Shown here in pieces: positions 12,220 to 23,029 of a stretch of DNA of 64,000 nt. Origin of the DNA: Patescibacteria group bacterium (GTDB lineage Bacteria; Patescibacteriota; Saccharimonadia; Saccharimonadales; 2-12-FULL-41-12); the NCBI GenBank assembly GCA_038064875.1, contig JBBTSC010000001.1, forward strand, positions 379,004-443,003, in the 5' to 3' direction. The notes below the pieces were generated by a model. That model saw only the letters and a program-made list of their open reading frames with translations. It did no database searches and was not told the DNA's origin. Within the stretch, counting starts at the first letter, position 1. Each line of letters opens with the position of its first letter. The position numbers and the translations under genes are program-made.

Positions 12220-12291
12220 TGGAGGTTACGAGAGTTGAACTCGTTCTGTCGGGTTTCAACCCGCCGTGCTAACCGTTAACACTAAACCCCC
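12220..12291 (-). tRNA. tRNA-like gene with non-canonical anticodon loop (type undetermined, possibly a pseudogene); no encoded CCA
   Basis: Reverse complement reads GGGGGTT TA GTGT TAACGGTTA GCAC G GCGGG TTGAAA CCCGA CAGA ACGAG TTCAACT CTCGT AACCTCC A. The acceptor (7 bp, one G:U), D stem and T arm all pair. The anticodon stem gives only 4 Watson-Crick pairs plus a G.A, and it closes a 6-nt loop (TTGAAA) instead of 7. Confidence 0.5.
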
Positions 12292-12338: not shown

Positions 12339-14153
12339 TCAATCAATCCATTCGGCTTTTATTTTCCAGTCTTTGCCACTCATTAGTTGAATATGAGTGA
12401 CTATCATCATACTAGTAGGGTTGTCCATGCTGGATGACATGGCGTGCCTTCCTGACCAAGTAGGTCGCTTCTCTCCGGCAGGTATTTGCAAGGCAACCCT
12501 GGTTATAAATGCTTTTGAAATTTGCTGGAGGTCATATAATTTGCGTTGAACTTTCGCATATTCTTCTGGATGCCATTCAGAATAAACTTCGTGGACTAGT
12601 TTTCCTCTTACATCCCATATGCCTTCATCTTTCTGGAAATAATCATTCAACACAGGATTTCCTTGTCCGAATACTGACGTGAGTGCCTGCTCAAGATAGT
12701 GTTTTATAGGAACAATGCCTTCAAAGTATGATTCCTTGATCATCTTTTCGATATCTGTTGAGTAGTAGGCCGCATAGTAATTATCAAACACAGCCTTAAT
12801 ACGCTTCTTACGTTCAGGCCTTGACTCCTTAGCTAATCCATAGAAGGCGCTAGCCTTTAGCTTGTCCTGGGCCAACTTTGCAGCTAATCCTTCTATTGAA
12901 ATATGGTAGCAGAGGAAGGCGTTGAGAGGATTTTGAATAGTATTGCCTAAGTTATACCAGTTAATCGCAGCATCGATTGCCAAATCTTTCTCTTTGTTTG
13001 AGTTTGCTATAAGCTGATTCAGAAACTTCAAGTCTTTCTCATTCGGTTGCGCAGACCCGCGCGTGTGGTTGTACATACCATACTTAAGGCGCCACCGAAT
13101 CTCCTTATCAAATGCAAAACCCAAGCTTTCCATTGATCTCTGAATGGACTCAATACCAATACGCACACCCTCTACAGAAGTGTCTTTAAGTCTTAGTGTG
13201 CCGTCATAAATATACTCATTTGCCAATTGAGTTTCATCACCTACGCGCAGTAGGTGAATGCCTCCTTCGATTTCAGTTTCTTTTTCAGGAAGATTAATTG
13301 CAGTTCGAGCAGCAAACTCGATAACAGGATAGCCTGTAGCCAGCATGTAGAAGAAAACGTTTTGAATGCGCTCGTCCTCACTTTTCTCTTTGGCCTCTTT
13401 TTGTATAAGATCCGAGCTTCCCTTATATTCCAGAGGTTTCCATTCTTCCGGATCATTGTATCTGCCAGGGAGTCCAACTTCGTATAACCATTTACCTTCC
13501 ATTCGCCATGCTTTGATAAGGCCGTCGTTGTCGCCAACCATAAAACCAATTCCATTATTATCGGGAATAATATTAAATCCCTCAGTTCCCGCGTTTGTAC
13601 GCTTGAACGATGCCTTAGTATCGTTAGAAAAATAAACGTTAAAGCCGTTCAAACCGTCCTTAGATGCAAGGATTTCAAAAACCTCAAACATACCTTGATT
13701 GACGTTGATAGGGAAAATTGTATGATTACTGCCAGTAAATTCCTTCAAAGCACCGTGATAGTGTTCAAGGAATCTTGCAATAAAGCTCATCAATTTTACG
13801 GTCTCACCACTATCACTAAGCTTTTTGATTTCCTGACCTACACTACCCGTAACGTGCAGGTTAAGCGCTGCCTCCCTGAAACTTCCGTCCTTTTGAGCAA
13901 GAGGTGGAAAGGGCATATAGTGTACCTTGCGTTGCAGTCTGGATAAGTTAGTTAGAAGCACCCATAGGTCCTCGCAGCTATCAATATCAGCCTCACTCGC
14001 TTTGCCTGATTTTAAGTTTCGCGCAAGCTCCTTCAGAGGTTCACTTTTATAAGACTCAATACCCCTAACCCTCAATAGCGTAAAAACATAATCAAGAGGG
14101 TAATTTGAGGCATCTCTAAATAGCTCGAGGATTAGCTCATCGGTTTTAGTCAT
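12339..14153 (-). CDS. Hypothetical protein with C-terminal HEPN-type Rx4H motif (third gene of candidate defence operon)
   Basis: 604-aa ORF whose start overlaps the upstream stop by 8 nt (ATGACTAA). The C-terminal helical region contains WDV-R516-GKLV-H521-EV (nt 12591-12608). I recognise no other family. Confidence 0.45.
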   Translation of the reverse strand: MTKTDELILELFRDASNYPLDYVFTLLRVRGIESYKSEPLKELARNLKSGKASEADIDSCEDLWVLLTNLSRLQRKVHYMPFPPLAQKDGSFREAALNLHVTGSVGQEIKKLSDSGETVKLMSFIARFLEHYHGALKEFTGSNHTIFPINVNQGMFEVFEILASKDGLNGFNVYFSNDTKASFKRTNAGTEGFNIIPDNNGIGFMVGDNDGLIKAWRMEGKWLYEVGLPGRYNDPEEWKPLEYKGSSDLIQKEAKEKSEDERIQNVFFYMLATGYPVIEFAARTAINLPEKETEIEGGIHLLRVGDETQLANEYIYDGTLRLKDTSVEGVRIGIESIQRSMESLGFAFDKEIRWRLKYGMYNHTRGSAQPNEKDLKFLNQLIANSNKEKDLAIDAAINWYNLGNTIQNPLNAFLCYHISIEGLAAKLAQDKLKASAFYGLAKESRPERKKRIKAVFDNYYAAYYSTDIEKMIKESYFEGIVPIKHYLEQALTSVFGQGNPVLNDYFQKDEGIWDVRGKLVHEVYSEWHPEEYAKVQRKLYDLQQISKAFITRVALQIPAGEKRPTWSGRHAMSSSMDNPTSMMIVTHIQLMSGKDWKIKAEWID

Positions 14154-16839
14154 AAAAGCCTATCCTTTTTAGATCATCACGCAGCCACTCGTATACCAGC
14201 TCAGTGACAGGACTAATGTGAAAGACATCCATTAGAGAGGCTTGGTGATGAGTACTGCTAATCCACTGCTGAGCATTTGGCCGTAACTGTCGGATAAGTT
14301 GATAGTTTTTTTCAAGATCTTCTCTCAAAGATGCGTGATCTAGCTTCTCGTCTCTTATCCGAATATCAACCTTATTCACACCATTACTAAGTGGCTCAAA
14401 ATGCCAACTTAAAACTGGTCTTGGACCCGGTTGTAGATAGCCCTTTAGTATCGCAGGAAACGTAACATAGGTTTGAAAACGATACTTCATACTCGGAAAG
14501 TACCGATCCACTATTTCTGTATATGCTTGGATGGCATTTTCGTACACAGCTATAGTTCTCTCAAGCTGGCGTTCGTCTGTATAAAGATTCGAGATTAGTC
14601 CTCCCGAAAAATCACGGTCTGGTTCAGGCCACGGGGATGCGAGTTCCACTAAGCCTAGTTTTTTCATACGAAGGGTATGTTGACGCAAAAGTTTCAGATC
14701 AAGGATCTTGCCATCGTTAAGAAGCGCTGCATTGGGTGTCATTCTATTTAATCGCTGTTCGATATCTTCTAATTTGAATGGGCCTGGATGCAAAGAACCG
14801 ACACCCATCACGGCGTGAGCTTCCACCCATACGCATTCGTCGTGAATGGGTCCGGCCTCAAGCATAAAGCGTCTTTTTTCTACGAGCCGTTTTAGTTCAC
14901 CGGAAAGCTCGCTATGTGCCCATTTCCACGCCCATGCTGGATCCGTGGTTGGTCTGTTCCAATGAGCGTGGCCCCAGTCAGATTTATGAAACGCATGCAC
15001 GTCGTATGGTATATCCTCGACGTCGTTTGCTAAATCATTCTGCGGTCTCCAAAGGACTAGCAACCCTTCACCATCGGAGCGAACTCCAAATTGATGCGGT
15101 CGACCATCTTCGCGAGAAATGCTCATTAAACCTGCCAAAGGACCCACTCCCTTTAATAATGCAACGAGAGCCTGTCTTATATGGCCACCCAATTCTTTTG
15201 CTGGCGGAGATGATACGGGTTCGCCAGGCATAGCGTATTCACGAAGTGACTCGTCGAGTATTTCACTCGTAAAACCAACATCTTTCTCCGCTAATATCTC
15301 TATCAACCTGCAGGATCCGTTCCAATCAACCTCGCCCAGGGCAATAATAAATGCGTAACGCCATAGATCGAGTCGCTCAACATCACCGGTAAGCTCTGAT
15401 ACGTTTACCTCTTCTCTCATCAAGCTCTCTGCAGCGAACCACTGTGTTAAAATCGCGGTCGAGAAAGATAGCATTCTTTCATTTTTGACTACGAGCCCCG
15501 TCTTCAGTAGGTCGTCTAGATTTGAACCTAAGTCAAGCTCGGCAATCGGCACAGGATTATCACGTCGATCGGTCGAGAGAGTTGCAAGTTTTCTGAGTAT
15601 AAATTGAACTTCTTCACTCTTTTCCGGTAGTGAGCCGCTAATAAGAAAACGAAGAAGTTCACCTTTAGACTGGGGAAGTTGCCGTGAGTCATTATCGCGC
15701 AAACGTATCCCAAGGATGATAGCCCAAAATGGTCGCTTTATGGCGTCTTTTATCGACGGCGGCCAGTCATATCCTTTCACTTCTTTATGTGCAATTTTTC
15801 TAACTAAGGCCAAGGAATCATCTTCCGCTAGTGGACCTAGTATCGAAACTTCTTCTTTCTGAAGCCGGTTCAAGATCGGCCTTGAAGTAATGACTATATA
15901 GATGTTAGGCCAGGTGTTCGTCACTAGTCGCGCACTCTCTAGTAAGTTGTTAGCCGTACCGGCACCGGCCTCATCTGCTCCATTTATTACTACAAACGCA
16001 CCCTGACGCTGTAGGTCACCTAATCCATTCGCTTTCTTTTGAATGACACCATAAAGGTCTGCGTCACCAACTACACTTGCCTCAAGCCAGATAGGCACAG
16101 GGGCATCTCGGTCCGTGATTGATTTTGCAATTGCTTGCTGCATCATCCTTTCAGCAGTTAACGACTTTCCGGACCCCATCTCGCCGACTATAACGACCAA
16201 AGGTCGATCAATTGTCGGTAGAATCGTATCACTCGGAAAACCAACTGACATATCGTCCGCGAGTCCAATAGCTTCAGACTTAGATAAACCAGCGGCCTGC
16301 CACCTAACCATAGCCCTCGCCCTCGACTCCTTGCCGAGGGTATCTAGCAGTACTGGACGACTGGCCGATGGGCTCGCTGATCTCCACGCTCGTGCCGTCT
16401 CATCGCCAAAACTTAAAGCAATAGTACTACGTAAATCCTCAAAGCTGGTTTTGAAGTATTTTGCTCTTAACCCGATTTCAGAGATAAGATCATTTGTTGG
16501 TTTGTCCGGCGCCGCCGCCTTCATACGCAATACTATAAGCCTGCGATTGTTTGCAAGTGCCTCGCGGATTTCATTTATAACAGGCTGTGTTGTTTTACTG
16601 CCTACAAGCCAAAGGACGGAATCTGCCTCGCGTACATGCCGGAGGTAATTTTCATCAGTCGCCTCTGCGCTAGCTGGTGTGTATTCAAAAGTCCACGGCC
16701 ACATGTACTTTGCGTCACTTAGGGCCATGTGCGCTTCTTTGCGCCAAGGCCCCATCTCCTTATCCATTACACTCGAAATAAATACTCTCAGGGGCTGTTC
16801 TGCAGGATAGATGATGGGTTCTTTGTTACCTTTGTTCAT
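14146..16839 (-). CDS. STAND NTPase: DUF4062-like N-terminal domain, NACHT module and a large uncharacterised C-terminal region
   Basis: 897 aa. The N-terminus RVFISSVMDKEMGPWRKEA...EADSVLWLVG is DUF4062-like. Walker A is GEMGSGKS (aa 219-226, nt 16162-16185) and Walker B-like is FVVINGADE (aa 282-290). IVITSRP (aa 315-321) is a NACHT signature. The C-terminal region is Trp-rich, e.g. DWGHAHWNRPTTDPAWAWKWAH. Confidence 0.7.
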   Translation of the reverse strand: MNKGNKEPIIYPAEQPLRVFISSVMDKEMGPWRKEAHMALSDAKYMWPWTFEYTPASAEATDENYLRHVREADSVLWLVGSKTTQPVINEIREALANNRRLIVLRMKAAAPDKPTNDLISEIGLRAKYFKTSFEDLRSTIALSFGDETARAWRSASPSASRPVLLDTLGKESRARAMVRWQAAGLSKSEAIGLADDMSVGFPSDTILPTIDRPLVVIVGEMGSGKSLTAERMMQQAIAKSITDRDAPVPIWLEASVVGDADLYGVIQKKANGLGDLQRQGAFVVINGADEAGAGTANNLLESARLVTNTWPNIYIVITSRPILNRLQKEEVSILGPLAEDDSLALVRKIAHKEVKGYDWPPSIKDAIKRPFWAIILGIRLRDNDSRQLPQSKGELLRFLISGSLPEKSEEVQFILRKLATLSTDRRDNPVPIAELDLGSNLDDLLKTGLVVKNERMLSFSTAILTQWFAAESLMREEVNVSELTGDVERLDLWRYAFIIALGEVDWNGSCRLIEILAEKDVGFTSEILDESLREYAMPGEPVSSPPAKELGGHIRQALVALLKGVGPLAGLMSISREDGRPHQFGVRSDGEGLLVLWRPQNDLANDVEDIPYDVHAFHKSDWGHAHWNRPTTDPAWAWKWAHSELSGELKRLVEKRRFMLEAGPIHDECVWVEAHAVMGVGSLHPGPFKLEDIEQRLNRMTPNAALLNDGKILDLKLLRQHTLRMKKLGLVELASPWPEPDRDFSGGLISNLYTDERQLERTIAVYENAIQAYTEIVDRYFPSMKYRFQTYVTFPAILKGYLQPGPRPVLSWHFEPLSNGVNKVDIRIRDEKLDHASLREDLEKNYQLIRQLRPNAQQWISSTHHQASLMDVFHISPVTELVYEWLRDDLKRIGFYD

Positions 16840-16840
16840 A

Positions 16841-19003
16841 TCATTTTCTACCTTTTCTTCTATTTTTTCTGGCGGCTTTCTTTTTTGCTTTCTCTTTCTT
16901 GGATTTAGTTAGCGACACTTTTTGCGCTACTATCTTTTTCTTACGGTTGCCCCCGTTCTGTTCATGCTGATTTACTAACTTGTCCATAGATTCTGATGGC
17001 TCCCAGGGCTTATTGCTATAAAGCGCATAGCTAACGAGTCGTTCTTCTCCAGGAACTGTACCCAAGGCTAACCATTGCTCGCTTTTTGATCTGTGCTTGT
17101 TGATTTCTGACAACGCAAGCATTGCTTTATGTAACTCAGGGTAGGTTGGTGCGCAAACATATGTTAGACCGCCCCATCGTTCGCCAAGCGCTACAGACAT
17201 ATCATTGGTTTTACCAGTCGTCCGCACACTCTGCTTAATACGCTCCATGTGCCCACCGATTTCCTCAAGATCATCATCTGAGATGCCGTAGAGAAACATT
17301 ACTATATCGGTGATGTCGGGCGATGGGTGCGACGATACCTCTTTGATAATTCTTGCGCGTGTAGGATTATCCTCGTCGCTTATTAAGCGATGTTCTTCGG
17401 GTGGCTCAGGGAGACGACCTTTTCTGTGCAAGAAGTCAGCATCGATAAGCTGTCCGAAATCTTGGGTAACAAGAACCTTATCCTTCCCTTGTGGCATAAT
17501 GAGACGCTTCCGTAGGTGATAGCCAAGATATGCCATTTCACTTTCGGCTTTCAAGCTCTCGATCGTATCGAGTCGTTGTTTGACGTAAAACAGGAATTCA
17601 AAAGGATTCTTTAGATACTCGGCCGTCGTAGCCAGGTCAAATAGGCTTATCGGTAAACAATAAGGACCGTCGTCAGTTCGAATTAGGTATTGGCTAGCCT
17701 GGTGAAGTGCCGCAGGGTATACGTCAGCTGTCACACAAACGATGTACGCATCGTCAAGACCGTTTGGTAAAGTGATCTCTTCACCGGCTTCGTTCACTAG
17801 TTTATATTCTTCATCGCCAAGCAGAGTGGTGCGGATTGTAACTGCCTCATCGTAAGACTTCTGGATAGCGTTCTCGAAGTCGCGTTTAAGGGTCTCTGTA
17901 TCACCACGACGTGAAAGCTCAGTGAGCTTCTTGCCTTTACATTGAAATATAATCGCCTTATTACCGACAATTACCATGACGTCTATATCAGTCAGGGTGC
18001 TATTGCCTTTGTTGACCTTGACTCGCTTATAGACCTTGTCGCCAAAGGTGCCTGTCAATATGTTGTGGGTGATATCTTCAACCGCATCGCCACGATGTTT
18101 AGCTACTTTGTCTTTGTATGCTGGGTCTGTAATCATGCCATAAAAAGGGTTCAGGTAAATTGCTTCAGCAAGGTTTAGGTTTATTGGCATGAAATAGTAA
18201 TCGTCGGCAACCTCAATCAACGGGTGCGAGTTAATAACGTTGTACTCACCAGGAGTGCTGAACGCCTGATTGTCATTGCCTGGTTTTGCACCGAATAACT
18301 CTAAAAATCTAGTGGCAGATGCGTCATTTATGTCTTCGTCATTAGGTTGGAATTTCTTTGCGGCATCAATGAGCTGATCTTTGCTGAAAGCCATTATCTC
18401 AATTGGCGCTAAGGCCTGATCCTTGTCGATCTGTCCTATAGTCGCCTTAGCCAAAATGTAGTTGTATGCAGCCCAGTAGTATTTTCCCGCCGTTTTCAAG
18501 TCCATGAAGTTGGCATCTAGCCAAGTTTCATCTTCAGCGTAAAGCTCAGGTGCTGTGTCGATAAACTGAAAATCATACGCTCCTGAGTCACCATAAAATA
18601 TCGGCTCAACCATACTTGAGCCTTGCGAGTGTGCCGTTTTTAGCTTTGTCTCAATTTCTTCAGGACTAAGCCCCTGGAATTCTCGTGGTTCAAGATTCTC
18701 AAACATTTTAAGTGACTGGAGATTGTGAAGCTCGTCTAGCAACTTACGTACCTCGATAACACTTGCATCGATTTGCTTCTGGGTAAGCGAGGTGTCGTCA
18801 AGAACTGGCTTCTTAACCATATAGCCGGCCAATAACGTTGCTTCTTGATTTGATACACGCGATCGCCAATCTACTTCAACGGCCTCTTCGACTGCATAGA
18901 ACATGTCGCTAACCATGATATCGGCGAGTACACGTAGAAATCCCGGCTGTTGCGCCAGTTTTTCGAGTTTCGATAGTATTTTACGGGATTTTTCATCATC
19001 CAT
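16841..19003 (-). CDS. NERD / PD-(D/E)xK nuclease-like protein with Lys/Arg-rich C-terminal tail (first gene of candidate defence operon)
   Basis: 720 aa. Residues 304-358 read RGDAVEDITHNILTGTFGDKVYKRVKVNKGNSTLTDIDVMVIVGNKAIIFQCKGK, giving E309, D339/D341 and Q354-x-K356 with NERD-like spacing. The tail is RKKKIVAQKVSLTKSKKEKAKKKAARKNRRKGRK. The stop lies 1 nt from the next ATG. Confidence 0.55.
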   Translation of the reverse strand: MDDEKSRKILSKLEKLAQQPGFLRVLADIMVSDMFYAVEEAVEVDWRSRVSNQEATLLAGYMVKKPVLDDTSLTQKQIDASVIEVRKLLDELHNLQSLKMFENLEPREFQGLSPEEIETKLKTAHSQGSSMVEPIFYGDSGAYDFQFIDTAPELYAEDETWLDANFMDLKTAGKYYWAAYNYILAKATIGQIDKDQALAPIEIMAFSKDQLIDAAKKFQPNDEDINDASATRFLELFGAKPGNDNQAFSTPGEYNVINSHPLIEVADDYYFMPINLNLAEAIYLNPFYGMITDPAYKDKVAKHRGDAVEDITHNILTGTFGDKVYKRVKVNKGNSTLTDIDVMVIVGNKAIIFQCKGKKLTELSRRGDTETLKRDFENAIQKSYDEAVTIRTTLLGDEEYKLVNEAGEEITLPNGLDDAYIVCVTADVYPAALHQASQYLIRTDDGPYCLPISLFDLATTAEYLKNPFEFLFYVKQRLDTIESLKAESEMAYLGYHLRKRLIMPQGKDKVLVTQDFGQLIDADFLHRKGRLPEPPEEHRLISDEDNPTRARIIKEVSSHPSPDITDIVMFLYGISDDDLEEIGGHMERIKQSVRTTGKTNDMSVALGERWGGLTYVCAPTYPELHKAMLALSEINKHRSKSEQWLALGTVPGEERLVSYALYSNKPWEPSESMDKLVNQHEQNGGNRKKKIVAQKVSLTKSKKEKAKKKAARKNRRKGRK

Positions 19004-19418: not shown

Positions 19419-19448
19419 GACAGTCCAGCGTGGCTGTCCTTTTTATTT
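19419..19448 (+). terminator. Rho-independent-terminator-like hairpin plus T-tract inside the divergent intergenic region
   Basis: GACAGTC cagcgt GGCTGTC forms a 7-bp stem with one G:U. CTTTTTATTT follows. No annotated plus-strand gene lies upstream, so it may end a small RNA or act as a leader attenuator. Confidence 0.35.
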
Positions 19449-19485
19449 GGAAGCCACGGATCATCAACCTGAACAAGGAGAAGCC

Positions 19486-20103
19486 ATGGCTACCAAACAA
19501 AAAGAGTGGAAAGATATGTCAAAAGTTGAAAAGACGATGACTGTCCTCATCCTACCGATTATCCTAATAGTTATTATTGCAGTCGCGTCAGCAATATTCG
19601 GCGGCGACAAGAAGACTGACGAACAGTTATCTAAAGCCGATACTAGCGAAACAGAAACTGCGCAACCCGCTCCTAAATTCGATACGTACCTAAATCGCCC
19701 TATGAGCGAAGTTGCGTCGGAATTTGGCCAGACCTACGATCCGGCTAACAGTACGCAGATACGGGCCGACAAAGCCGGATACAAGCTATTCTTTGAGGAT
19801 GGTGGGCGCGATGATCCGACCAACCCACTTAAGAAGCAAAATACGGGCCAAGTAACGACTGTTAACATGGATTTGCCACAGATGGGTAAATGCAAACAGG
19901 ACCAGGTATTGGATAAAGTCGATGATGCCATGCGAGCTGCCGGTCTCAATCCAGACATGAAGGGCGACAAAAGCGGCACACAGGAAGGTTACGCGACCTA
20001 CAAAAACTACTTAGATAAAGAGAGCCTGGAGCTGACCTTGTTTTGTGAGTACAACGACGCGAACTACAAGCTGCAGATACGTGTACTCCCTGAATTTAGA
20101 TAG
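19486..20103 (+). CDS. Hypothetical N-terminally anchored exported protein (island cargo)
   Basis: I prefer the in-frame ATG at 19486, preceded by AAGGAG, over the track start at 19447. TM helix is MTVLILPIILIVIIAVASAIFGG. No known motif. Confidence 0.5.
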   Translation: MATKQKEWKDMSKVEKTMTVLILPIILIVIIAVASAIFGGDKKTDEQLSKADTSETETAQPAPKFDTYLNRPMSEVASEFGQTYDPANSTQIRADKAGYKLFFEDGGRDDPTNPLKKQNTGQVTTVNMDLPQMGKCKQDQVLDKVDDAMRAAGLNPDMKGDKSGTQEGYATYKNYLDKESLELTLFCEYNDANYKLQIRVLPEFR

Positions 20104-20155
20104 CATACCGTTCGCGCTTTAGTCGTCTTCACTCCTGTGGGATAATCAGAGTAGT

Positions 20156-20791
20156 ATGGACAAGGCTGATGAGTTAAGACCTGATGAGTATGAGATAAAA
20201 GATCTGATTGCTAATGATCGGTTTATTAAAAGCGTAAACGCTTTGAGAAAGAGATGGAAGATTCCGATAATGGGCTTTGGTTCAAACTGGGATCAAAACA
20301 AGTGGAATGAGCAAAATCAAGAATCAATGCCGGATTATATTGCTGATGTAGAAGCGCTGCGAATCGAGTTTGACCTTACTTTTCGATGGAAGACCGCTCT
20401 ACTCCACTTCATACCTACTGCTAACCCGCTGGTGCTGCGAGCTCAATCACCCTGGGAGATAAGGTATACCTATGAAGGAAGCACCGTGGCGAGTAGAAAA
20501 AATGTTCGAGATTTAATGATACTTACCGATGAGTCTATCAGCCAAGATGAAATACTGGATGCCCAGAGAACTATTAAACGACTGGCAAAGCGACCAAAGA
20601 AACAACTAATCACAAATATTGATCGTGACAATAAAGCTTACGCGCTTCATCAATCAGGTGAATCAAATATGCAAATTGCGGCTTGGCTAAATAAGACTCA
20701 TCCCGGGCAGGCATTCAACACTGACAGTGTTGCAAAGATTATCAAAAGAGTGTCTGCACGGCGCACAAAAGGACACCCTACCCAAGATTAG
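20156..20791 (+). CDS. Hypothetical protein with C-terminal helix-turn-helix-like segment
   Basis: 211 aa. The C-terminus HQSGESNMQIAAWLNKTHPGQAFNTDSVAKIIKRVSARR looks like a resolvase/sigma-r4-type HTH. This is inference from the residue pattern. Confidence 0.45.
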   Translation: MDKADELRPDEYEIKDLIANDRFIKSVNALRKRWKIPIMGFGSNWDQNKWNEQNQESMPDYIADVEALRIEFDLTFRWKTALLHFIPTANPLVLRAQSPWEIRYTYEGSTVASRKNVRDLMILTDESISQDEILDAQRTIKRLAKRPKKQLITNIDRDNKAYALHQSGESNMQIAAWLNKTHPGQAFNTDSVAKIIKRVSARRTKGHPTQD

Positions 20792-20991: not shown

Positions 20992-21077
20992 TTTATCGGT
21001 AGTAATGGAAGCTCCTGTTGGCTTAACTGCAAGCCTTGTCCCAGGAGTTTCCACTACTACTTGTAAGGGATTGGGTG

Positions 21078-22676
21078 ATGAAGCAATACGCGATAGCTAC
21101 CTGTAGGGTATCTTCAGTCGAGCAGCTTGACAGCAATAGCTTAAATCGCCAAGCAAAATCAGTAACTGAAGCAGCAAAATACTTGGGCGTGACCATCCCG
21201 CCAGGTGGTATCTGGAGTGGTAGCGTATCGAGCAAAGAAGGCAGAAACTATAGCCGCAAAGACCTCAGGGCTATGTTGGACTATTGCAAAAAGAACCCTA
21301 GAGTAAAATACCTGATCGTAGATGAAATAGATCGATTTATGCGGAGCATTGATGAGATGTTCTATTTTGAAGTTGAATTTCGTAACAAGGTTGGCGTGAA
21401 GGTTTGGTATGCAGGCGATCCAGCACTAAATAGCGATGACCCTTTGACGAAGTTGAGAAGAGCTATGGAGGCATTTAAAGCGGAGGGTAGTAATCTTGAA
21501 CGACAACTTAAATCGATTAAGGGCCAAGTAGCTGCTATAGAAGATGGTAGATGGCCTTTTTCTCCGAAGCCAGGATATAAACGGGGCTATGATAGAGGAA
21601 TTCAGGAAGTGCATCCAACTCGCGGTAAGTCTCTGCAATCTATCCTGATCAAAATTGCTTCCGGCTTAGTTACGCCTACCCAGGGACTAATTGAGCTTAA
21701 TAGAAGTGACTTTATGAGCGACGGTCATGCTCCTTACAAAATGGATAAATTCAGAAAAATAGTCACCGATCCTTTTTATGCTGGTATTTTAGTCATGGAT
21801 AAGCAAGTTAAGGCTCGAAACGAATATGGAATGCACGAAAAACTTATTACAAAGGAGCAGCATTTAGCACTCATCAGAATCATGGATAGTAAAAAGAAGA
21901 CCCAGTCAGGGCCAAGGAAGAACGGAAATCCTGAATACCCGCTATCGAATCATGTAAGTTGCGATTTATGTAAAGATAAGAAAAACGGAAGGTATGTCGG
22001 CTTTGATCACGGGAACGGAAGTAATCCCCGACTTGTCTACAATAAATATCGCTGTAGGGCCTGTAAGCGGTATCTCAAGCGCGAAGAGCTACACCCGCAA
22101 GTGATTAAGCTGTTTGAAGATAGGCCAATTTCAGATGAGGGCGTGAGTGACTTGATCGAAGCAATAGAAAAGGTATGGAAACAGAAAGAAGATCAGTCGG
22201 TCCAAGATGCAAATTACATAAAACGCAAGATTAGCAACCTCAACAAAGCAATCGCCGAGAAAGTAGACGCTGCGACCGATCCTAGTAATATTACGATTAA
22301 GGCCGAAATCCTCGAAGCCATAGAGAAAAAGAAGAACGAAGTTGCTGAATCAGAAGAAGAGCTCGCAAAACTAAGCGGTAATGCCGAAAGAGACCTCGAG
22401 CGCTTTTTGCGCTTTGCTTTTGATTTTGTAGACAATATGGGTAGCAAGTTTCTAGAAACCACCCCTGATAATAGGCTCCGGTGTAAACTTATCGTTTTTC
22501 CTGCCGGTTTCTACCTCGATGCAAACAATAAAGTTTACACTCCAGAAATTAGCCCACTTTACGGGTTAGCGACAAAGAAAAAGAGCGCCGAAGCGCTCGA
22601 TAATTCCCATTTGGTGCGGGTAAGGAGACTCAAACTCCTGGCCTCATCCTTGGCAAGGATGCGCTCTATCAACTGA
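21078..22676 (+). CDS. Large serine recombinase (integrase)
   Basis: The preferred start ATG at 21078 follows AAGGGA. The N-terminus MKQYAIATCRVSSVEQ carries the catalytic Ser motif. There is a recombinase domain, a zinc ribbon (CDLCKDKKNGRY...YRCRACKRY) and a coiled-coil region. The last 21 codons are antisense to tRNA-Gly. Confidence 0.85.
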   Translation: MKQYAIATCRVSSVEQLDSNSLNRQAKSVTEAAKYLGVTIPPGGIWSGSVSSKEGRNYSRKDLRAMLDYCKKNPRVKYLIVDEIDRFMRSIDEMFYFEVEFRNKVGVKVWYAGDPALNSDDPLTKLRRAMEAFKAEGSNLERQLKSIKGQVAAIEDGRWPFSPKPGYKRGYDRGIQEVHPTRGKSLQSILIKIASGLVTPTQGLIELNRSDFMSDGHAPYKMDKFRKIVTDPFYAGILVMDKQVKARNEYGMHEKLITKEQHLALIRIMDSKKKTQSGPRKNGNPEYPLSNHVSCDLCKDKKNGRYVGFDHGNGSNPRLVYNKYRCRACKRYLKREELHPQVIKLFEDRPISDEGVSDLIEAIEKVWKQKEDQSVQDANYIKRKISNLNKAIAEKVDAATDPSNITIKAEILEAIEKKKNEVAESEEELAKLSGNAERDLERFLRFAFDFVDNMGSKFLETTPDNRLRCKLIVFPAGFYLDANNKVYTPEISPLYGLATKKKSAEALDNSHLVRVRRLKLLASSLARMRSIN

Positions 22677-22687
22677 GCTATACCCGC
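22612..22687 (-). tRNA. tRNA-Gly (anticodon GCC)
   Basis: Reverse complement reads GCGGGTATAGCTCAGTTGATAGAGCGCATCCTTGCCAAGGATGAGGCCAGGAGTTTGAGTCTCCTTACCCGCACCA. All stems pair and the anticodon loop is TTGCCAA. Confidence 0.9.
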
Positions 22688-22788: not shown

Positions 22789-22864
22789 TGGTGGCTCCTC
22801 CCAGACTCGAACTGGGGACACAAGGCTCTTCAGGCCTCTGCTCTACCAACTGAGCTAAAGAGCC
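22789..22864 (-). tRNA. tRNA-Phe (anticodon GAA)
   Basis: Reverse complement reads GGCTCTTTAGCTCAGTTGGTAGAGCAGAGGCCTGAAGAGCCTTGTGTCCCCAGTTCGAGTCTGGGAGGAGCCACCA. Anticodon loop is CTGAAGA. Confidence 0.9.
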
Positions 22865-22958
22865 ATACCGTGGTAACTTGGTTTCAACGATTTGTTAATG
22901 TTTGCCTGAAGATCTTGTGTCCCCAAAGGGACAAGTTATGATCTGCCGGCTCCGCCTT

Positions 22959-23002
22959 GGGCTCTTCAGGCCTCTGCGACAATCCGACTGAGCTAAAGAA
23001 CC
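22959..23002 (-). pseudogene. tRNA-Phe 5' fragment (acceptor 5' strand to anticodon loop); no T-arm or 3' acceptor strand
   Basis: The reverse complement GGTTCTTTAGCTCAGTCGGATTGTCGCAGAGGCCTGAAGAGCCC parallels tRNA-Phe residues 1-41. The D-stem 3' strand is corrupted. No sequence complementary to GGTTCTT follows. Confidence 0.6.
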
Positions 23003-23029
23003 ATAGGTTGAAACAAAATATTCTGTTAA

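Follow-up and report, generated by a model that had tools for sequence, protein, structure and literature searches.

The question raised by this locus is whether a long gene with a nuclease-like core encodes a working enzyme, and whether it acts alone. The gene, here called gene 1, lies on the minus strand at positions 16841-19003 of a 64,000-nucleotide stretch of DNA from a Patescibacteria group bacterium (Saccharimonadia; assembly GCA_038064875.1, contig JBBTSC010000001.1, positions 379,004 to 443,003). The whole stretch is referred to below as the window, and positions are numbered from its first letter. A preliminary description, made from the letters alone, had pointed to a NERD-like nuclease core within the protein and to its strongly basic C-terminus. 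That observation is confirmed, and the interpretation placed on it is partly supported. We propose that gene 1 encodes a stand-alone, mobile, single-gene defence nuclease, and give this reading as a whole a probability of roughly 55%. The narrower claim, that the protein is an active, stand-alone PD-(D/E)xK nuclease, can be made with considerably greater confidence. The family to which the protein belongs has a conserved restriction-endonuclease fold with the motif PD-D...QxK, a constant multidomain architecture, a solitary and mobile gene, and a C-terminal tail that has been swapped.

Domain organisation of the gene 1 product

The protein is 100% identical to the NCBI entry 'MAG: hypothetical protein AAB423_02175 [Patescibacteria group bacterium]', according to a search of 5.8 billion proteins, which produced 74 full-length homologues. 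An AlphaFold2 model was built on an alignment of family members, and has a predicted local distance difference test score (pLDDT) of 87 and a predicted template modelling score of 0.86. All residue conservation figures given below come from 136 non-identical relatives. The gene and its parts are as follows.

16841-19003, minus strand: gene 1, open reading frame with ATG start, 720 residues and TGA stop
18404-19003, minus strand: all-helical N-terminal domain, residues 1-200 (helices only in the AlphaFold2 model)
18566-18598, minus strand: motif FYGDSGAYDFQ, residues 136-146, the most conserved motif of the family
18116-18403, minus strand: small alpha+beta connector, residues 201-296 (AlphaFold2), with N255, P261 and Y296 invariant
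17564-18115, minus strand: NERD/Can2-like PD-(D/E)xK domain, residues 297-480 (AlphaFold2, Foldseek, Pfam NERD and PADLOC PD_DExK)
17936-17989, minus strand: putative catalytic motif T-D339-I-D341...Q354-x-K356, on strands beta2 and beta3 (from conservation among the relatives)
16949-17563, minus strand: C-terminal alpha/beta domain, residues 481-685 (separate AlphaFold2 model, pLDDT 88.7)
16844-16948, minus strand: poly-Lys/Arg (K/R) tail, residues 686-720, with 19 K/R in 35 residues

The nuclease domain is the part that can be placed. In the model it consists of a helix (297-323), three strands (324-332, 335-346 and 349-356), a second helix (369-395) and two further strands (418-425 and 449-453). 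Residues 297-453 are therefore predicted to form the alpha-beta-beta-beta-alpha-beta core of restriction-endonuclease-like enzymes, and the domain is closed, after beta5, by helices with the motif YLxxPFEFxxYxxQR (463-477). The segment originally singled out as the core, residues 304-358, maps to nucleotides 17930-18094 and falls in the alpha-beta-beta-beta element of this confident model.

Foldseek comparison of the whole model with the PDB gives the defence nuclease Upx (9wuf) as top match, with an E-value of 2e-5. The next best are the nuclease domains of Can2, Card1, Cdn1 and VC1899 (1XMX), at 2e-3 to 7e-2, and the core has weaker matches to McrC, Cas4 SSO0001 and lambda exonuclease. The restriction-endonuclease-like fold, on which the preliminary description had staked its nuclease assignment, is found both in the modelled core and in these matches.

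Sequence models lead to the same region. NERD (PF08378) is the only Pfam domain matched by the nuclease core of the family: 25 of 42 aligned members match it at E<=0.1, the best at 3.3e-5, and one plasmid homologue is named 'nuclease-related domain-containing protein' by NCBI. The precomputed Pfam annotation of the 74 homologues has NERD in none of them. The PADLOC model PD_DExK, described as 'same family as 1XMX', matches the gene 1 product with an E-value of 1.7e-4, and the CARF_PDDEXK models of PADLOC match the same stretch in the family. All PADLOC and Pfam matches of the gene 1 product are confined to residues 233-394.

The domains on either side of the core (about 296 residues N-terminal and about 240 C-terminal) have no match in Pfam, NCBIfam, PADLOC or PDB sequences, and the picture of a NERD-like core between flanks of no recognised family stands. 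A scan of the whole protein against NCBIfam returned nothing, PDB sequences searched by phmmer and by profile gave chance matches only, and a fold search of the viral database BFVD gave weak matches to generic nucleases only. The N-terminal domain is nevertheless under clear constraint, with E54, G60, Y137, Y155 and W161 invariant. Within its FYGDSGAYDFQ motif, Y137 is conserved in 100% of relatives and G141, Y143 and Q146 in 99%.

The C-terminal domain, folded alone, has no significant match in the PDB by Foldseek. Its weak top matches are PD-(D/E)xK proteins, namely Cas4 SSO0001, lambda exonuclease, RecE and CidB, with E-values of 4e-3 to 1 and TM-scores (template modelling) below 0.3. No conserved D...(D/E)xK motif is present in this domain among the 136 relatives. 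It may at most be a degenerate second nuclease-like fold, and is best treated as a lead.

The active site

The model places the presumed active-site residues on strands 335-346 and 349-356. Q354 and K356 are conserved in 100% of relatives and D341 in 99%, while position 339 is aspartate in 92% and glutamate in 7%. E309 is conserved in 86%, and an acidic residue is found at either 309 or 310 in 93%. Of the five residues named in the preliminary description, then, D339, D341, Q354 and K356 are conserved as proposed, and E309 is less so. The near-invariance of Q354, K356 and D341 across bacteria and archaea is what one would look for in a functional active site.

The glutamine is the residue on which a different reading turns. 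Q354 stands in place of the canonical acidic residue, and E309 is conserved in only 86%. The domain might on these grounds be catalytically dead, and the protein a nucleic-acid binder or sensor, as the preliminary description suggested; binding could then come from the tail and the domains beside the core. We regard this as highly improbable. Nuclease domains of the Mrr type, among them those of EcoKMrr and MspJI, normally have PD-QxK as their catalytic site, and enzymes of the MspJI family cleave DNA in vitro with it (PMC12707154; PMC6765204). Because PD-QxK is native to these catalytic domains, Q-x-K gives no hint of an inactive domain. Furthermore, degenerate domains usually lose such residues as D341, Q354 and K356, and here they are invariant or nearly so. 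The invariant Q-x-K of this family is a further case of a motif form that is compatible with strong active-site conservation.

The likeness to the Mrr-type domain is one of motif form only. The gene 1 product lacks the winged-helix or SRA reader domain of the Mrr and MspJI proteins, and Pfam Mrr_cat (PF04471) does not match it at E<=1.

Comparison with known nucleases

The best structural match, Upx, is a single-chain PD-(D/E)xK anti-phage protein that senses phage terminase and is encoded by a solitary gene (PMC13099982; PMC13601566). It has 1272 residues arranged in domains named NTD, MD and CTD, with a canonical core (D1161, E1176 and K1178) at the extreme C-terminus (PMC13099982). The gene 1 product resembles it in being encoded by a solitary gene and in having its PD-(D/E)xK core within large uncharacterised domains, and the dual-nuclease layout of Upx is echoed by the weakly nuclease-like C-terminal domain described above. 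It differs in its size of 720 residues, in the central position of the core and in having QxK.

A second comparison is with ZwsA (Zowangsin) of Pseudomonas aeruginosa, a stand-alone multidomain NERD RNA endonuclease that cuts the genomes of RNA phages. Its NERD domain (E535, D567, E580 and K582) is central, preceded by additional N-terminal domains and followed at the C-terminus by a module that binds nucleic acid (bioRxiv 10.64898/2026.04.06.716636). The gene 1 product, compared here with the described architecture of ZwsA, is likewise stand-alone and multidomain with a central NERD-like core. ZwsA has ExK where the gene 1 product has QxK, and the Pfam models VHS, DUF647 and S4 do not match the flanking domains of the gene 1 product. 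These two proteins are the nearest analogues in function; membership of either the Upx or the ZwsA family is not established.

Can2, Card1, Cdn1 and VC1899 (1XMX) have the best-matching solved nuclease domains after Upx; Card1, for example, aligns over 165 columns at 5.7 Å. Can2 and Card1 have ExK and a CARF domain, whereas the gene 1 product has QxK and 200 N-terminal residues that are all helical. A CARF-type sensor in the gene 1 product was considered and rejected, since the N-terminus is all-helical and the long alignments with Can2 have root-mean-square deviations of 16-20 Å.

The C-terminal tail

The protein ends in ...NGGNRKKKIVAQKVSLTKSKKEKAKKKAARKNRRKGRK. The tail has 19 K/R and one acidic residue (Glu), for a net charge of +18. 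By comparison, the first 685 residues contain 10.9% K/R, have a net charge of -37, and include no other 35-residue segment with more than 9 K/R. The binomial probability of the enrichment is about 4e-10 per segment, or about 3e-7 when corrected for the number of segments. The basic tail that was first noticed in the sequence is therefore real and far from chance. AlphaFold2 models it as a helix of lower confidence, with pLDDT of 65-74.

The relatives reveal what stands at this position elsewhere in the family. In 84 of the 136 the protein ends in a SEC-C motif, in 30 it ends in a K/R-rich tail free of cysteine, and in 22 it ends in neither. The SEC-C relatives end in ...KIGRN(D/E)PCPCGSGKKYKKCCG, which is a canonical zinc knuckle, and the Pfam model SEC-C (PF02810) matches 17 of 42 members. 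The gene 1 tail has no Cys or His, and so lacks the SEC-C motif CxC...C(C/H). All the K/R tails that have a named source genome come from Saccharimonadia-type Patescibacteria, and SEC-C is kept in other Patescibacteria (Paceibacterota, Daviesbacteria and Moraniibacteriota). Among the K/R tails the composition is conserved and the sequence is variable. Judged from these alignments, the K/R tail is a lineage-specific replacement of SEC-C in Saccharimonadia-type Patescibacteria.

This revises how the tail should be read. It had been taken as typical of nucleic-acid binding, but because SEC-C occupies the same position in 84 of the 136 relatives, that role is just one among several that the tail might have. 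Candidates for its ligand are DNA, RNA, the ribosome, an anionic membrane and the very acidic body of the protein itself.

The SEC-C metal-binding domain of SecA binds SecB and ribosomes (bioRxiv 10.1101/613315; PMC6620043). The canonical motif that ends 84 of the family members is the same, although the gene 1 tail has K/R only and no link to protein secretion is evident. By analogy with SecA, the C-terminal appendage, whether SEC-C or poly-K/R, might be a device for docking on ribosomes or RNA, which would make the family a widespread and hitherto unrecognised class of ribosome-associated single-protein immune nucleases. Such enzymes could cut mRNA, rRNA, tRNA or nascent transcripts of the invader once the helical and alpha/beta domains, as sensors, detect infection. 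We offer this as a long shot. If it were true, the exchange of SEC-C for poly-K/R in ultra-small bacteria of the candidate phyla radiation (CPR) would amount to a natural experiment, indicating that affinity for polyanions suffices. The replacement provides a tractable handle on the function of SEC-C outside SecA.

As a separate observation, 16-17 of the aligned members match the PADLOC models for CBASS E2, CBASS E1-E2 and PDC-S12, with E-values down to 2e-8. The matches are presumably through SEC-C, because the number of matching members equals the number that bear SEC-C. This points to SEC-C as a recurrent C-terminal element of defence proteins that are otherwise unrelated.

Distribution and mobility of the family

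A family profile was searched against 1.84 billion cluster representatives (50%-identity clusters). At E<=1e-3 it gave 3705 matches, of which 2462 remain at a limit of 1e-10 and 911 at 1e-30. Among the 150 best matches, nearly all are 650-780 residues long and align from end to end. The family has a constant length of about 700-780 residues and a constant architecture.

A further scan covered 185,579 species, each represented by a single genome, and took as its query the pattern Yx[DG][ST]G[AS]YDFQ, derived from the FYGDSGAYDFQ motif. It found 90 relatives, and 80 loci were kept. The bacterial hosts among these loci are Patescibacteria, Acidobacteriota, Chloroflexota, Bacteroidota, Desulfobacterota, Nitrospirota and Gammaproteobacteria, and the archaeal hosts are ANME-2, Aenigmatarchaeota, Altarchaeum and Methanoflexus. 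The distribution is extremely patchy across the bacterial phyla and archaea. Members are also found on 41 plasmids, 22 of them conjugative, with 19 in Agrobacterium, 5 in Streptomyces and 2 in Halobaculum. None was found by tblastn in 50,697 phage records.

Public annotations call these proteins 'hypothetical', 'SEC-C domain-containing' or, once, 'nuclease-related domain-containing'. The family has no description in Pfam, NCBIfam or PADLOC; the fold, the form of the motif and the concept of a large single-protein nuclease are already known.

It is worth adding that the Caldilineaceae chromosome OZ242330.1 carries two diverged copies of the family (loci L035 and L033) about 115 kb apart, both without a SEC-C tail.

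Gene neighbourhoods of the relatives

Open reading frames were called in 83 non-redundant loci, including the window, and the proteins encoded within 6 kb of the family gene were clustered. The genes that recur near the family gene are as follows.

Large serine recombinase: 15 of 83 loci, the window included
HsdR: 8 of 83 loci
HsdM: 6 of 83 loci
HsdS: 4 of 83 loci
TOTE AEP-helicase-PLD protein: 3 of 83 loci
YgjP-like peptidase: 3 of 83 loci

No conserved partner gene was found, either by clustering of the 83 loci or in a scan of 145 immediate neighbours. These neighbours belong to 103 different Pfam families, each present in no more than three of them, and a same-strand downstream gene within 40 nt occurs in only 11 of 79 loci. 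No cas genes, including those of type III CRISPR systems, were seen among the recurrent or immediate neighbours. Individual loci show other contexts: in one locus HigB, M78 and DUF4411 genes lie by the family gene and adjoin a terminase; a 15-kb plasmid has RelE/ParE and an integrase nearby; and an Agrobacterium pAt plasmid has PLD and AAA genes and HxsABC. Taken as a whole, these contexts are those of a gene that moves horizontally as solitary cargo and is moderately associated with defence loci and mobile elements.

A recurrent association is with type I restriction-modification (R-M) genes, within or beside which the family gene lies in about 10 of 83 loci. In loci L007-L009 the family gene (10001-12154 in L007) overlaps the 3' end of an hsdR gene of 1002 residues by 4 nt, in L091 and L092 it overlaps hsdS, and in L044 it overlaps hsdM. 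These start/stop overlaps would fit an accessory or back-up to the R-M system, like PrrC or RloC, which the Hsd complex restrains and which is released when a phage inhibits restriction. However, R-M genes are absent from the 6 kb around the family gene in most loci, the window among them, and therefore dependence on Hsd cannot be general. Unrelated defence genes are, moreover, known to land in type I operons (PMC11411939). We consider a dedicated R-M accessory very unlikely.

In L007-L009 and L082 a short open reading frame of 88-110 residues, matching just the T1RH-like_C end of HsdR, follows the family gene. It looks as if the family gene in these loci was inserted into, or recombined beside, the 3' end of hsdR.

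Mobility raises a further alternative, in which the nuclease would have a maintenance or housekeeping function, either for mobile elements or for the host, for example in recombination, repair, entry exclusion, addiction or the stability of plasmids or of integrative and conjugative elements (ICEs), with no role in immunity. Members are indeed found on plasmids, ICEs and recombinase islands; many chromosomal copies lie amid housekeeping genes, and no known defence model matches. A maintenance role sits poorly with the patchy distribution (90 relatives among 185,579 species at one genome each) and with the variable position of the gene in mobile elements, where it has no linkage to genes of replication, transfer or repair. 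The repeated embedding in type I R-M operons also speaks against it. So does the finding that a STAND module stands in for the family gene in one Saccharimonadia ICE slot, which is how defence cargo behaves. A maintenance function is unlikely on balance.

The ICE slot deserves a description of its own. It lies between RadC and the TrbC/TrbL genes of the type IV secretion system, at 9546-15488 in L003/L004 and at 5131-11978 in L093. In L003 it contains the family gene and an OLD-like TOPRIM protein, and in L093 a protein of about 300 residues, a STAND protein and a 606-residue protein. It is a candidate defence hotspot in an ICE of the CPR.

Relationship to genes 2 and 3

Two further genes follow gene 1 on the same strand.

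14146-16839, minus strand: gene 2, 897 residues, DUF4062 and a P-loop STAND NTPase (Pfam)
12339-14153, minus strand: gene 3, 604 residues, no family match, overlapping gene 2 by 8 nt

The start codon of gene 2 lies 1 nt past the stop codon of gene 1, and the three genes are likely to be co-transcribed. A functional link between them was implied by the preliminary description, and could take the form of a three-gene system in which gene 1, as the nuclease effector, works with genes 2 and 3, and the STAND NTPase of gene 2 senses infection and switches the nuclease on. In favour of this, the window genes are packed on one strand, with a 1-nt gap and an 8-nt overlap, and operons of a nuclease and an NTPase are a common defence layout (bioRxiv 10.1101/2025.07.10.664194). 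The close Saccharimonadia relatives also have a tight downstream gene, encoding either a 460-residue protein or an OLD-like TOPRIM protein.

The comparative evidence goes the other way. No partner is conserved in the 83 loci, and a STAND neighbour is absent from the 82 loci other than the window. The pair of genes 2 and 3 occurs without gene 1 in two Saccharimonadia contigs, at 63-76% identity (L093 7001-11505 and L094 6923-11424); gene 3 is 76% identical to its L093 counterpart, which has 606 residues and comes after the STAND gene. Gene 2 also has an N-terminal effector of its own. In its family this position is taken interchangeably by DUF4062, metallophosphatase, lipase or SEFIR/TIR, as in Avs/NLR-like proteins, and such a swappable effector is typical of the self-sufficient members of that class. 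Genes 2 and 3 are thus a conserved, overlapping two-gene module, with products of about 895 and about 605 residues, that is independent of gene 1, and the apparent operon of the window is two independent modules side by side in a cargo hotspot. Functional dependence is not supported, and a three-gene system is very unlikely.

The STAND pair of L093 and L094 is preceded by an unrelated protein of about 300 residues. Homology between this protein and gene 1 was considered and rejected: the hhalign probability is 0.05, and Pfam gave nothing.

Even the closest relatives of gene 1, at 77-94% identity, have differing downstream genes. In L003 the downstream gene encodes an OLD-like TOPRIM protein, and in L013 there is just an open reading frame of 84 residues, 249 nt downstream.

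In three others of these close relatives the family gene is followed by a conserved protein of about 460 residues with no Pfam match (L005 12160-13533, L010 12163-13545 and L012 12226-13608). Its gene overlaps the stop of the family gene by 4 nt, and the proteins are 54-76% identical to one another. It is possibly a partner, or a second cargo gene, in its sub-clade.

A proposed stand-alone defence nuclease

On the basis of these observations we return to the proposal that gene 1 encodes a stand-alone, mobile, single-gene defence nuclease. A number of points weigh against it. The case for defence comes from gene context, by counts that have no statistical control, and housekeeping enzymes flank many of the family loci. 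The PADLOC scan of the gene 1 product and 42 members gave only generic nuclease and SEC-C-driven matches, and no model of a defence protein. The match of the gene 1 product itself to Pfam NERD (residues 308-394) scores 15.5 bits with an E-value of 0.025, below the gathering threshold of 22.1 bits. The alignment with Upx (9wuf), although its E-value is 2e-5 and it extends over 606 columns, has low TM-scores of 0.37 and 0.23. Sequence searches lend Upx no support, either with PDB sequences by phmmer and profile or with PADLOC at E<=10 across the 42 members. E309, at the usual place of the first acidic residue, is substituted in 14% of members. Finally, a sensor role of the flanking domains is something that we infer purely.

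With these reservations, a mechanism can be outlined. The nuclease would be kept in check by the non-catalytic domains, which would also recognise a cue from the invader, as in Upx, ZwsA and Avs-type proteins. Once activated, it would bind Mg2+ through D341, Q354 and K356, with help from E309 and D339, and cleave nucleic acid. The body of the protein is strongly acidic (net charge -37), and the basic tail on it could bind polyanions non-specifically, whether DNA, RNA, the ribosome or an anionic membrane. Alternatively, it could fold back on the acidic body as an autoinhibitory element. In both cases the tail would replace the SEC-C knuckle in function.

Patescibacteria, including Saccharimonadia, have reduced genomes and few recognised defence systems. 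If the protein is an immune nuclease, it would be one of few candidate defence systems in this group, and the family would be a sizeable addition to the single-gene defence systems, amounting to hundreds to thousands of 50%-identity clusters.

The integrative island in the window

Genes 1 to 3 lie in an integrative island of about 10.5 kb, which extends from a tRNA-like gene to tRNA-Gly. Its GC content is 0.45-0.47 (at about 14-20 kb), compared with about 0.41 elsewhere in the window. Its other features are as follows.

12220-12291, minus strand: tRNA-like gene at the left edge (Rfam tRNA 46.2 bits, gathering score 29)
19447-20791, plus strand: genes for a 218-residue protein and a 211-residue protein (weak helix-turn-helix match), divergent from gene 1
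21036-22676, plus strand: large serine recombinase (Pfam Resolvase 1.7e-11, Recombinase 4.3e-5)
22612-22687, minus strand: tRNA-Gly at the right edge

The 3' end of the recombinase gene runs about 65 nt into tRNA-Gly, which is on the opposite strand. The tRNA-like gene at the left edge has the anticodon loop UUGAAAC, giving the Phe-like anticodon GAA, and its sequence departs strongly from that of the canonical tRNA-Phe (22792-22864); ARAGORN made no call for it. A scan for promoters and terminators found 14 promoter-like sites where 13.2 were expected. A search for direct repeats of the att type at the ends of the island found only short repeats at chance level and repeats derived from tRNA.

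Just outside the right edge, an exact repeat of 18 nt, GGCTCTTCAGGCCTCTGC, is present at 22824-22841 and 22960-22977. It is adjoined by a 29-nt repeat with 76% identity, at 22846-22874 and 22984-23012. Together these resemble part of a second tRNA-Phe, situated between the first one and tRNA-Val, which may be the scar of an earlier integration.

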